A program made the position numbers and the translations under genes. Below are positions 3,317-8,572 of a stretch of DNA of 32,000 nt, piece after piece. The stretch's first letter is position 1, and each line of letters begins with the position of its first letter. The stretch is from Candidatus Methanoperedens sp. (GTDB lineage Archaea > Halobacteriota > Methanosarcinia > Methanosarcinales > Methanoperedenaceae): NCBI GenBank assembly GCA_027460535.1, contig JAPZAR010000018.1, forward strand, positions 37,146 through 69,145, in the 5' to 3' direction. The notes beneath the pieces are model-generated. The model saw nothing but the letters and a program-made list of their open reading frames with translations. It was not told the DNA's origin and searched no databases.

Positions 3317-3499
3317 TTATTGCGCTCCTGACTTCATGAGCCTCTGCACAGCCTGGTTGCCTATAGTTCTTTGAAGAAAGAGAATTTGTTCAACAGGTGA
3401 ACTGAGTGGCTGGCAGAAATTACCTTTCTGCACCTGTGATACCTGATTCTCTTTTTTTGTCTCGGGTGCTTTGACCGCTGTCTTGAAAGCTTCGCCCAT
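3317..3499 (-). pseudogene. Leader-only stub of the effector family (first 59 codons, then a premature stop)
   Basis: MGEAFKTAVKAPETKKENQVSQVQKGNF-QPLSSPVEQILFLQRTIGNQAVQRLMKSGA is near-identical to the N-termini of the 663-aa and 712-aa ORFs. Homology ends abruptly at about 3320, where the intact genes continue LQAKLRIGAPGD. Confidence 0.8.
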
Positions 3500-3745
3500 T
3501 TGTTATTTCCCTAAAAATTAAATGTTCATATATAGATTTATTAGCTCTTAACACTTCAAACTGCTAAGAAAATTGTAAAGACTATTCTATGGACTTCCAG
3601 CCTCTACTCCGTTTGATTTTAACTTTGAAATCGCATAAATTTTTTTGTTATCCTGAGACATCTTTTCAATCTTTTTCTGGTTAATGACCTTTGCCTCATA
3701 ATCATTCCAAGCAAACCATTTTTGATTATTCTCGCAGTAAAACAA
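3317..3745 (-). repeat. Copy C of the dispersed block [3' end of Cys-rich gene + intergenic + effector leader]
   Basis: Collinear with 8038-8457 by direct comparison of the DNA. Confidence 0.85.
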
Positions 3746-3778
3746 ATTTAGGCTGGGTATAGGGTTAATTCTTACCAA
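3587..3778 (-). pseudogene. 3' fragment of the Cys-rich gene (paralogous to 8317-8457)
   Basis: The 63-aa ORF ends CENNQKWFAWNDYEAKVINQKKIEKMSQDNKKIYAISKLKSNG, matching the last 45 or so residues of the 218-aa ORF. DNA homology runs from about 3590 to 3745 and is lost upstream. Confidence 0.8.
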
Positions 3779-3820
3779 AATTTTTGCAAAATAGGAAGCA
3801 GCTCTAATTCGTTTAAGCTT

Positions 3821-5959: not shown

Positions 5960-6199
5960 TTGTTATCTCCTTGAAATTAATCGCATAAATCTTCCTTTTA
6001 TCTTGATTGATAATTTCCTGGTTAATCACCTTTGCCTCATAGTCATTCCAGACATGCCATTTTTGATTATTCTCGCAGGTAAAACCCCTGCACGGCACAG
6101 GGTGGTGGTCGCAATGCGCAGCGGTAGGTCTTCCTGTCTATATGAACGCAGTAGCCATCAGTATCGTGTGCGATAAGATATGGTCTTCCGAACTCCCAT
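5600..6199 (-). repeat. Copy B of the dispersed block (with an internal deletion of about 105 nt)
   Basis: Collinear with 7860-8572. Similarity ends at the KRQPIKEE codons on one side and at CCGAACTCCCA on the other. Confidence 0.85.
5980..6199 (-). pseudogene. Frameshifted 3' fragment of the Cys-rich gene (paralogous to about 8340-8572)
   Basis: DNA is collinear with the intact gene. It translates as WEFGRPYLIAHDTDGYCVHIDRKTYRC, then loses frame through a 2-nt deletion relative to 8470-8490. The terminal codons and about 105 nt of intergenic sequence are deleted. Confidence 0.75.
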
Positions 6200-6223
6200 C
6201 CTGCCTGACTGACTCAAAACAAG

Positions 6224-8215
6224 TCAATAATGTTGTTTGGGTATGAAATCTCCTGTTGCAGCTTTGGCGGCTTCATTTCGACCAATCACGTCTTTCTTGT
6301 AAATTTTAGCATCCGTCCCCGATCCATTATATGCTTCTATGGCAGCGTCCCAATCCTTAACTCCGTTTCTTTTTTCAAACAACCACCGAACTGCCGTGCG
6401 AATCCAGTAGTCATAATCGAGATTTCGGGCTTTGGTCGTTTCAGTAAAGAATTCCTCAACTGCTGATTCCCATCGCGTGTCCGTGGTGAAGAAAACGTTC
6501 CAGCGATCGCCGTTTTTAGATCGAGAATTGATCGTATCCAATTCCGACTTTTCCGCGGGCGTTATTGATTTGCCTTTTGCTACAAGTTTTTTTCTGCGTG
6601 CTTGAGCATCAAACATATCTTTAGTTACCTGATCGAGATTGTGTTTGATCGCGATAGCTGGACTTATTTCCTTGATCATCAAAATTTGCTGATCTCCAGA
6701 GCTATCAATAGCCTGACCTATATTGAAACGGGTCATCCGTTGCCCTTTCGTATATGGTGGAAGTTTGAGGAAATCTCCCAGTGTCCCCATGTGGGACTCC
6801 TGATACAACATTGATTTCACCAGGCTGGCATCCAATGCAAGCCATTTCTTTGGCGAACCGATGTTCTTATTGTAAAACGCTACCCATTTTACAATACTTG
6901 CATCGAAAGCATTGAACATGGTTTCTTCTATCAAAGCTTTGTTCAGTAATGTGCTTTGTGGGATGATGGGAATTTTTATTCCATCTGCTTCTATTTTCAA
7001 ATATTCGGGAAGTGTAGCAGAGGTGTATCCTTCTCCCGTCAACTTGTATTTCAAATCTTTAAGTTCGGTTTGCTTCACATTCATCTGGCGCTGCCATTCG
7101 GCTTTTCCATTGTCGGTCGTATACTTTTTTTCCTCTGCCTTCCAATCAGACACTACTTTTTCCTGATCGCTGATTTTCTTTTCGAGTACGGCATATTTTT
7201 TTTCTATGCTCGCAACACCTGCATGGTATTGAGATAAGCCCGATTTGGTGTCGCCTGCTGGAACCAGAATATTTTTCTCGATAGTGACGGAGGTAACTTT
7301 ACTGCCTGATGTGAAATTGGCAGTGACTGAGGTTTTGGTGTTCGACCATGCAGTAATGACCACACTGCTTCCTTTGGGAAGAGTAAGGTCAGAAACCTTC
7401 AACTCTTTGTTGAGTATAAACATTTTCCCGATCATCTCTTCCACGGCATCTTCGGGTAGGAATCGCTGAACAATTCCAAGGCTCGATAGTCCTTGTTGCA
7501 CAACATGCGTAAGCTCATGTGCCAGCAACTGCCGCCCATCAAGCGTTCCGGGCGCATACTGCCCGGCTCCAAAGGCCACATCCTTGCCTACTGTAAATGC
7601 GAGTGCATTCAAATCCCTCGCAGACTTTGCAGCCCTTTCGTCTGTATGCAACCTCACCTTAGTGAAGTCATGACCGAATCGTGGCTCGAAAAAGGCGCGG
7701 TCGTTTTCTGATAAAGACTGCCCTCCACCCTTGAGGGACTGGATTTTTGATTCAATATCAGGATTTATTTCAGAGATACCACCAGAAGTTGTCTTCCCCT
7801 GAAGCTCTTCCTCCTCTTCTTCGACTGGTTTCCTTTGCAGCTTCTCCTCTTCGTCTTCTTCTTTTATCGGTTGCCGCTTCAGTTCATCAATTTCACATTT
7901 CGGGCACATCCTCTGGATGGAAGGTGTACCACCGGATAACGCCTGCGTCTGCGGCATCCGCATCACTGCATCCGCTACTCTGTCAGCCTCCTGCTCGTAA
8001 ACATCGCCTGGCGCGCCTATCCTGAGCTTGGCCTGCAGCGCTCCCGACTTCATGAGTTTCTGAACAGCCTGGTTGCCTATAGTTCTTTGAAGAAAGAGAA
8101 TTTGTTCAACTGGTGAACTGAGTGGCTGGTAGAAATTACCTTTCTGCACCTGTGAAATCTGATTCTCTTTTTTTGTCTCTGGTGCTTTGACCGCTGTCTT
8201 GACTGCTTCGCCCAT
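6224..8215 (-). CDS. eCIS-associated effector candidate: shared leader + DUF4157 (HExxH) domain + coiled-coil + C-terminal lysozyme/lytic-transglycosylase-like domain
   Basis: GGGQSLSENDRAFFEPRFGHDFTKVRLHTD...LLAHELTHVVQQ is the DUF4157 signature. The C-terminus has SMLYQESHMG (catalytic Glu-Ser context of SLT/goose-type lysozyme folds) and AIEAYNGSG (AYNxG end motif). Confidence 0.75.
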   Translation of the reverse strand: MGEAVKTAVKAPETKKENQISQVQKGNFYQPLSSPVEQILFLQRTIGNQAVQKLMKSGALQAKLRIGAPGDVYEQEADRVADAVMRMPQTQALSGGTPSIQRMCPKCEIDELKRQPIKEEDEEEKLQRKPVEEEEEELQGKTTSGGISEINPDIESKIQSLKGGGQSLSENDRAFFEPRFGHDFTKVRLHTDERAAKSARDLNALAFTVGKDVAFGAGQYAPGTLDGRQLLAHELTHVVQQGLSSLGIVQRFLPEDAVEEMIGKMFILNKELKVSDLTLPKGSSVVITAWSNTKTSVTANFTSGSKVTSVTIEKNILVPAGDTKSGLSQYHAGVASIEKKYAVLEKKISDQEKVVSDWKAEEKKYTTDNGKAEWQRQMNVKQTELKDLKYKLTGEGYTSATLPEYLKIEADGIKIPIIPQSTLLNKALIEETMFNAFDASIVKWVAFYNKNIGSPKKWLALDASLVKSMLYQESHMGTLGDFLKLPPYTKGQRMTRFNIGQAIDSSGDQQILMIKEISPAIAIKHNLDQVTKDMFDAQARRKKLVAKGKSITPAEKSELDTINSRSKNGDRWNVFFTTDTRWESAVEEFFTETTKARNLDYDYWIRTAVRWLFEKRNGVKDWDAAIEAYNGSGTDAKIYKKDVIGRNEAAKAATGDFIPKQHY

Positions 8216-8572
8216 TGTTATTTTCCTAAATTAAATATTCTCATATGTATATAATAACTTTTAACATCTCAAACTGCCAAGAAAATTGCATGACTATTCT
8301 ATGTACTTCCAACCTCTCATCCATTTGATTTTGACTTTGAAATCGCATAAATTTTACTGTTATCCTGAGATATCTTTTCCATCATTTCCTGGTTAATGAC
8401 CATTGCCTCATAATCATTCCAAACATGCCATTTTTGATTATTCTCGCAGGTAAAACCCCTGCACGGCACAGGGCGGTGGTCGCGCACTGTGCAGTGGTAT
8501 GTATTCCTGTCCATATGAACGCAGTAGCCATCAGAATCATGTGCGATAAGATACGGTCTTCCGAACTCCCAG
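7860..8572 (-). repeat. Copy A (intact reference) of the dispersed block
   Basis: Contains the intact Cys-rich gene 3' end, a 101-nt intergenic region and the leader of the 663-aa effector. A fourth leader copy plus DUF4157 core lies at about 10505-11125. Confidence 0.85.

Follow-up and report, generated by a model that had tools for sequence, protein, structure and literature searches.

Probable recombination-driven turnover of cargo cassettes next to an archaeal contractile injection system

How does an archaeal contractile injection system come to carry, in a row, cargo genes that begin alike, end in unrelated domains and are separated by pieces of the gene that stands upstream of them? 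This question is raised by a 32,000-nt stretch of Candidatus Methanoperedens sp. (the window hereafter; GenBank assembly GCA_027460535.1, contig JAPZAR010000018.1, positions 37,146 to 69,145), in which the genes of a contractile injection system of the extracellular type (eCIS) are followed by an array of cargo genes, the fragments of a YkgJ-type Cys-cluster gene and an orphan leader. Our analysis suggests that the array was probably shaped by recombination-driven turnover of cassettes, in the style of polymorphic toxin loci. All real genes of the window lie on the minus strand. In the coding orientation, the array starts with the cargo gene E630, followed by the intact YkgJ gene (8973-8317), a 101-nt spacer, the cargo gene E663, 25 nt and YkgJ fragment 1, after which come the gene E712, ~57 nt, YkgJ fragment 2, a copy of the spacer and a leader stub of 60 codons (3499-3317). 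The features are as follows.

9338-11230, minus strand: E630, 630-aa eCIS cargo gene with type-A leader, DUF4157/eCIS_core, OmpA-like domain and a C-terminal domain without assigned function
8317-8973, minus strand: intact YkgJ-family Cys-cluster gene, 218 aa (Pfam CxxCxxCC, 4e-4)
7855-8571, minus strand: block copy B, the reference, with YkgJ codons ~135-218, the 101-nt spacer (8216-8316) and E663 up to codon ~120
6224-8215, minus strand: E663, 663-aa eCIS cargo gene with type-B leader, DUF4157 and a widespread C-terminal domain of ~240 aa
5976-6198, minus strand: YkgJ pseudogene fragment 1, codons ~135-212, 91.1% identical to 8381-8571
5599-6198, minus strand: block copy C, with YkgJ fragment 1, what remains of the ribosome-binding region, and E712 up to codon ~120
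3821-5959, minus strand: E712, 712-aa gene with leader codons 1-121 joined directly to non-DUF4157 cargo
3608-3763, minus strand: YkgJ pseudogene fragment 2, codons 168-218 including the stop (tblastn q168-218, 71%)
3500-3607, minus strand: copy of the YkgJ-effector intergenic spacer, 80-89% identical to 8216-8316
3317-3499, minus strand: orphan leader stub, 60 codons, with ATG and ribosome-binding site intact

The array contains a repeated block consisting of the YkgJ 3' end, the intergenic spacer and the effector leader. Self-BLAST of the window, combined with a repeat search, located three copies, as a reading made from the letters alone (the sequence-only reading) had claimed: an intact one at 7855-8571, a damaged one at 5599-6198 and a third one at 3322-3763. 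The copies are 87-91% identical, with BLAST E values of 1e-63 to 1e-148, far above chance, and the similarity reaches into synonymous sites and the non-coding spacer. The pairwise comparison proposed at the same time, which included 10500-11250, yielded a fourth, more distant copy. The alignments are listed below.

3322-3743 with 8038-8456: 88.9% identity, 423 aligned, E 4e-148
5599-5980 with 7855-8234: 86.9% identity, 382 aligned, E 2e-121
6010-6198 with 8381-8571: 91.1% identity, 191 aligned
3322-3521 with 5782-5980: 88.0% identity, 200 aligned
7493-8117 with 10508-11132: 81% identity, 630 aligned, the fourth copy, covering leader and DUF4157 (E663/E630)

The homology of the stub ends at ~3322, and its stop codon, at 3317-3319, lies one codon beyond; the spacer copy in front of it may hold a promoter. 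In the middle copy, YkgJ fragment 1 is frameshifted, as had been noticed, by a 2-nt deletion that splits the tblastn match into two frames (q135-174 and q160-212). What had been taken for a single deletion of ~105 nt is in the alignment a ~108-nt deletion, in which most of the spacer was lost together with the end of the gene, accompanied by one of 9 nt. The junctions in the window lie 25 and ~57 nt past the preceding stops, fragment 1 starting behind the E663 stop at YkgJ codon 135 and fragment 2 behind the E712 stop at codon 168.

Repeats of this kind attract mis-joins and the source is a short-read metagenome-assembled genome (MAG), so that cassettes of different strains could have been concatenated at the repeated leader. 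Such an artefact had been named as a circumstance that would undo the case for recombination. However, two contigs from other ENA assemblies and other samples match the window at 100% identity along 15,959 and 11,651 nt, the whole array included. Exact matches between block copies reach 52 nt at most, well under the k = 141 suggested by the names of the contigs, the junctions between warhead stops and truncated YkgJ are unique sequence, and the architecture recurs in unrelated datasets. We consider an artefact of assembly very improbable.

What do the cassettes encode? Their common N-terminal module spans ~120 codons and consists of a variable stretch of ~35 residues, a LFLQRTIGNQAVQ...GAPGDVYEQEADRVA core and a CxxC/acidic linker, with at least 3 unrelated types of the first ~35 codons attached to one common core. 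E630 and E663 each score 104 bits against PF13699 (eCIS_core/DUF4157; Pfam E values of 5.6e-30 and 5e-30, respectively), and E630 also matches OmpA (2.7e-10). DUF4157 is present in these 2 of the 3 full cargo genes, whereas E712 and the stub share the N-terminal region only. E712 has no Pfam match, also under a permissive scan, and has nothing beyond the N-terminus in common with E630 and E663; it is an exact match to a protein that is listed at NCBI under a Candidatus Methanoperedens MAG. It is a chimera of three modules: residues 1-121 are the leader common to the array, residues 169-509 are 36% identical to P0124, a leaderless protein with a different C-terminus, and residues 522-712 share 56% identity with the C-terminus of P0123, a bacterial DUF4157 protein. 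Among the leaderless relatives of the middle module, one belongs to a different CIS-like locus, and another has surroundings that resemble a defence island. The middle domain looks like one of the pre-toxin TG type, an identity that Pfam did not confirm and that we do not claim. By its sequence, E712 is best described as a natural DUF4157-less cargo within a DUF4157-type system, with the leader fused to foreign modules at the acidic linker.

The last ~240 residues of E663 have homologs in 168 representative proteins; a sample of 10 includes 7 with an N-terminal eCIS_core and 2 that combine subtilase and amidase_2. Self-BLAST detected no similarity among the three C-terminal domains of the window, and they resemble none of those in related loci. 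When these C-terminal parts were compared with Pfam under permissive settings, OmpA in E630 was the only match, and PDB sequence searches with the C-terminal parts of E712 and E663 gave nothing useful. The array hence displays unrelated C-termini behind a conserved N-terminus, the arrangement of N-terminal domain, DUF4157 and C-terminal domain known from eCIS cargo, and its modules recur in other architectures. The homology between cassettes ends at different points, namely, after DUF4157 at codon ~240 (E630/E663), after the acidic linker at codon ~121 (E712) and at codon 60 (stub). The sequence-only reading had suggested that warheads are swapped by recombination at the leader; turnover is supported, and the junctions are located not only at the leader but also at codon ~121 and after DUF4157. 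Judging by its architecture and conservation, and by analogy with the AlgoCIS cargo Cgo1/Cgo2, the N-terminal module would be the signal for loading cargo into the tube.

The stub leader, which had been described as a mosaic of 712-like and 663-like parts, bears on exchange between the copies. The two strings quoted in support are correct, and the coordinates given are off by one: the 27-mer occurs in the window only at 3327 and 5787 (not 3328 and 5788), and GCCTATAGTTC only at 3359 and 8075. Over 430 columns shared by the stub, E663 and E712 copies, the 37 stub sites that agree with one neighbour only read, with 6 for E663 and 7 for E712, 6676666666766766666666667666676677777; 27 of the first 32 side with E663 and all of the last 5 with E712. 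The maximum chi-square is 15.6, with a permutation p of 0.002 (0.004 for the leader alone), and the breakpoint falls between ~3348 and ~3362. Because three sequences give no topology, outside leaders were added to the comparison, and the resulting 2+2 quartet sites group the stub with E663 at leader nt 4-138 and with E712 at nt 158-180.

Uneven substitution rates could imitate such a pattern, if the E712 leader had evolved fast in its first 100 nt and the E663 leader in its last 80 nt. With three sequences, each discordant site amounts to a branch-specific change; the E712 leader (W_712) has 6 unique changes, all in leader nt 22-88; and the distance of the stub to the leader of L001_684, a gene of 684 aa from another MAG, is about the same in the two segments (identities of 91% and 95%). 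Nevertheless, the true quartet sites change partner with position, the maximum chi-square is significant and the family-level tests described below too indicate recombination, which makes uneven rates quite an unlikely explanation. The stub leader appears to be a real mosaic between 663-like and 712-like leaders, albeit one of few sites, and three sequences do not allow the recombinant copy among them to be identified. Taken whole, the stub is closest to the L001_684 leader (93.3% over 195 nt).

Recombination is also apparent beyond the window. Related loci were gathered via the YkgJ protein, a scan of GTDB genomes and a scan of metagenome contigs with the conserved leader DNA motif. A PHI-type four-gamete test on 13 leaders gave p = 0.002. 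The nearest neighbour of a leader switches by segment: in E630 (W_630), nt 1-105 are 95% identical to L005_5133 and ~50% to type-B leaders, and nt 181-270 are 92% identical to leaders of other types; in L001_730, nt 1-105 are ~50% identical to all other leaders and nt 181-270 are 96% identical to L005_6438. We count these switches as evidence of recombination. Furthermore, a run-length (GENECONV-like) test singled out a tract common to L001_684 and L001_438 (columns 217-256, p <= 0.0005), which are paralogs in one genome with different leader types; the tract looks like the mark of gene conversion acting inside a single genome.

The fragments of the upstream gene, which the sequence-only reading had taken for scars of cassette turnover, are not confined to the two in the window. 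Across the window and 37 non-redundant related loci (38 loci and 75 leader starts), an intact YkgJ gene precedes 6 leaders and YkgJ fragments precede 10, in 8 of the 38 loci. The scars start at codons 37, 83, 100, 100, 109, 121, 129, 135, 146 and 168, and most of them keep the leader-proximal 3' end. Orphan modules that retain a constant part, together with signs of recombination, are a property of polymorphic toxin loci and are found here in the form of the stub, the two YkgJ fragments and the mosaic tests. The three loci L001, L004 and L005, whose YkgJ is 88-92% identical to that of the window, have 2-4 leader-bearing genes each, with differing orders and warheads, and none of the three C-terminal domains of the window has a homolog in them.

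The variability of the YkgJ junctions speaks against site-specific movement and in favour of deletions or illegitimate joins. A site-specific system, such as an integron, a shufflon or a small mobile element, would move the blocks as cassettes, and the conserved 5' element of each cassette does superficially recall an integron. Against it, a Pfam scan of the main minus-strand open reading frames (ORFs) of at least 60 aa in the window detected no integrase, transposase or reverse-transcriptase domain, in line with the earlier remark that no transposase or integrase accounts for the duplications. Likewise, no inverted repeats bound the blocks, no terminal repeats were found and no Rfam family matches the window. 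We therefore rejected a mobile element, given the lack of bounding inverted repeats and of a recombinase domain in the scanned ORFs, and an RNA-based explanation, given the lack of an Rfam match; site-specific movement in general has hardly any likelihood.

Several observations weigh against turnover by recombination. The copies in the window are 9-13% diverged, so that no event is recent. They stand as far from one another as from the copies of other MAGs, so either the events are old or other lineages supplied the cassettes. The stub mosaic rests on ~8 sites, and its breakpoint was located post hoc. For the 9 type-B leaders by themselves, the PHI-type test shows no significance (p = 0.44), the overall site incompatibility is high (0.51), so that homoplasy could contribute part of the signal, and the run-length result for the three window copies (leader nt 313-366) is confounded by regional conservation and was down-weighted. 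L001 has one YkgJ scar on the upstream side of the intact gene, for which reason we rejected, as a general rule, a strict model that places the newest cassette beside the intact YkgJ. Exact look-ups of the E712 and YkgJ proteins found no alternative arrangement, all 3 contigs on record having the same protein order; a short contig with a 90% identical YkgJ is uninformative on the arrangement of the array. Finally, no immunity genes are evident: the coding strand between cassettes contains no ORF of at least 55 aa and the gaps before the YkgJ fragments measure 25-57 nt, leaving the cassettes without the cognate downstream immunity gene of polymorphic toxins.

Could the array then be the product of an old tandem duplication of the YkgJ-effector unit, followed by divergence and decay only, with no ongoing exchange and with the leader kept by purifying selection on the loading signal? 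The divergence of the copies and the result for type-B leaders fit such a history, and one L001 scar keeps the YkgJ start codon and carries internal deletions, as a decaying full duplicate would, which favours duplication and decay for that copy. By contrast, the warheads are unrelated and the homology breaks off abruptly at three different positions. The similarity includes synonymous sites and the non-coding spacer, neighbours switch by segment, tracts within a genome cross leader types, relatives with ~90% identical YkgJ have none of the warheads, and E712 is chimeric. Duplication and decay as the whole explanation is accordingly unlikely, and recombination-driven turnover remains the probable one.

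How would such turnover proceed? Homologous recombination and gene conversion would find their substrate in the few hundred bases of 85-93% identity contributed by the leader, the spacer and the 3' end of YkgJ, whether the partners are paralogs of a single genome or cassettes from related genomes. A cassette could be gained by a homologous crossover in the block combined with an illegitimate join just past the stop of the incoming warhead, i.e., by homology-facilitated illegitimate recombination, or else by duplication of a whole YkgJ-effector unit and subsequent deletion. Either route would leave a 5'-truncated YkgJ fragment before the displaced older cassette, and the window scars, 25 and ~57 nt past the stops, are compatible with both. 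Older cassettes would decay, the most distal one down to the 60-codon stub. The anatomy, the repeats, the mosaic statistics, the scars in other loci, the modular warheads and the lack of a recombinase domain in the scanned ORFs are observations; the direction and order of the events and the exact recombination pathway are inferred. A more far-reaching version, which we regard as rather doubtful, is that the block is a maintained landing pad homogenised by gene conversion in each genome, allowing an integron-like exchange of eCIS cargo among Methanoperedens populations without a dedicated enzyme, with the stub as an empty acceptor site.

The cargo arrays of related loci show further variation. 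In L034 (SWBX01003421.1, 1-9710), at least 6 leader-bearing DUF4157 genes stand in a row within 9.7 kb, suggesting that such arrays can be much longer than that of the window. Degenerate fragments occur immediately upstream of the intact YkgJ in L005 (9771-9952, DUF4157 and leader) and L006 (9760-9867, DUF4157), and effector genes would thus appear to leave scars as well, on the other side of YkgJ.

The YkgJ gene itself deserves attention. The window protein scores 21.4 bits against PF03692 (CxxCxxCC), where the gathering cut-off is 23, and many of its close homologs have a precomputed PF03692 match and the NCBI name 'YkgJ family cysteine cluster protein'. Homologs are detectable in 655 proteins, the best ones in Methanoperedens, with bacterial ones 65-73% identical. 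In the related Methanoperedens loci L001 and L002 the gene lies directly upstream of an eCIS_core gene (10001-10663 in L002), and on the 7.3-Mb contig L014 it is inside the eCIS operon (8001-8681), between the AAA ATPase and Pvc16_N (Pvc16-like terminator). Its placement across related eCIS loci therefore points to a conserved accessory gene of this eCIS lineage; we found no paper in the literature searched that ties YkgJ or CxxCxxCC to eCIS, and the Cys-cluster protein appears to be an undescribed accessory. Similar AT-rich 20-mers, TTTTTAAGAAAGGAATTTAA and TTTTTAAGAAATATATTTAA, are located at 9009-9028 and 11269-11288, 36-58 nt upstream of the YkgJ and E630 start codons, and may represent a promoter element common to the two genes.

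The injection machine recognised by Pfam occupies 16222-30846 on the minus strand, upstream of the cargo region and in the same orientation. The genes are the following.

30196-30846, minus strand: tube protein (CIS_tube)
29137-30186, minus strand: gpD-like hub
28457-29140, minus strand: spike (Phage_base_V is listed among the Pfam matches of the locus)
28060-28455, minus strand: PAAR (PAAR_motif)
27649-28059, minus strand: gp25 (GPW_gp25)
22589-27652, minus strand: first of two baseplate-J proteins (Baseplate_J)
20708-22567, minus strand: second of two baseplate-J proteins (Baseplate_J)
19699-20715, minus strand: P2-I (Tail_P2_I)
16222-19680, minus strand: fibre-like protein, 1152 aa (Pfam scan of the locus)

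The clustering of tube, spike/VgrG-like, PAAR, gp25, baseplate-J and P2-I genes assigns the system to the eCISs (Afp/PVC-like), and the sheath, AAA ATPase and Pvc16 genes, which lie outside the window, are found in related loci. Genes for an M48 peptidase and a TPR protein lie between the structural genes and the cargo array. Downstream, the array is adjoined by GatCAB and other housekeeping genes, and is therefore chromosomal. Within the fibre-like gene, internal direct repeats (16876-17971 and 18782-18963) are 77-82% identical, and the L005 and window genes share 90% DNA identity limited to a 389-nt part, which hints at modular evolution of the fibre gene too. Directly upstream of the tube gene, an ORF without Pfam match (30843-31985) contains ~300-nt tandem repeats, 75-79% identical, which span 31146-32000 and reach the window end. 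At the opposite end of the window, an 83-aa ORF with an NAL1_N match (1438-1689) lies just downstream of a 336-aa Nal1-like protease gene (1716-2726) and is 45% identical to the first ~76 residues of the protease, as a partial paralog or a shortened duplicate would be.

How does the array compare with known systems? The cargo of eCISs is composed of an N-terminal region, DUF4157 and a variable C-terminal domain (EAT toxins; Geller et al. 2021, PMC8213781), and in the AlgoCIS cargo Cgo1/Cgo2 the N-terminal domain is needed for tube loading and DUF4157 is dispensable (bioRxiv 10.64898/2026.05.27.728243). As in AlgoCIS and EAT cargo, the genes described here close an eCIS operon at its 3' end, and paralogs share an N-terminus followed, after DUF4157/eCIS_core, by unrelated C-termini; the DUF4157-less E712 accords with the dispensability of DUF4157 for loading. 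Unlike these systems, the host is an archaeon, Methanoperedens, the leader is not simply disordered but holds a strongly conserved motif, and the array is marked by pseudogene scars of the upstream YkgJ; we did not find recombination-driven turnover described for AlgoCIS or EAT cargo.

In the T6SS (type VI secretion system) of Vibrio cholerae, effector-immunity modules are displaced sequentially, for which homologous recombination and homology-facilitated illegitimate recombination have been proposed (Kirchberger et al. 2017, PMC5361080). In both cases, additions are made beside conserved genes that lie upstream and belong to a contractile machine, and what was there before is moved downstream, in mosaic regions without specific integration sites or a recombinase. 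Whereas Vibrio piles up orphan immunity genes, the window holds whole effector genes, fragments of an accessory gene and an orphan leader. The contact-dependent inhibition (CDI) loci CdiA-CT/CdiI and the Rhs loci similarly consist of a constant region followed by a variable toxin end, with orphan modules that retain a piece of the constant region as a possible substrate for recombination (Poole et al. 2011, PMC3150448). However, the constant part of these loci is the huge 5' portion of one ORF, as opposed to a ~120-codon leader plus upstream sequence; their orphans are promoter-less 3' tips with immunity genes, whereas the orphan of the window is the opposite end, a leader without warhead; and each cassette of the window is a whole gene with its own start. 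Turnover of cargo is known for T6SS, CDI and Rhs, and we found no description of it for eCISs or archaea; papers on anaerobic methanotrophic archaea (ANME) and Methanoperedens mention contractile injection systems and not cargo arrays.

The payloads of the Photorhabdus virulence cassette (PVC) reportedly share short N-terminal packaging leaders and are encoded downstream of the structural genes. They are without DUF4157, as stated in the PROCIS preprint (bioRxiv 10.64898/2026.05.27.728243), on whose statements our comparison rests; the leaders of the window are not known to share sequence similarity with the PVC leaders.

Collectively, the locus does not introduce a new principle, since its evolutionary mode is that of bacterial polymorphic toxin loci. 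What differs is the setting, an archaeal eCIS with whole-gene cassettes, scars of an accessory gene, a leader orphan and no immunity genes evident. Our results explain how the eCISs of anaerobic methane oxidisers could diversify the cargo that they inject, and draw attention to the YkgJ-type Cys-cluster protein as an unstudied conserved eCIS accessory tied to cargo genes. The natural fusion points behind the leader could guide the engineering of cargo; if the block did serve as a landing pad, the junctions after codon ~121 or DUF4157 would mark where foreign proteins plug in and still load.

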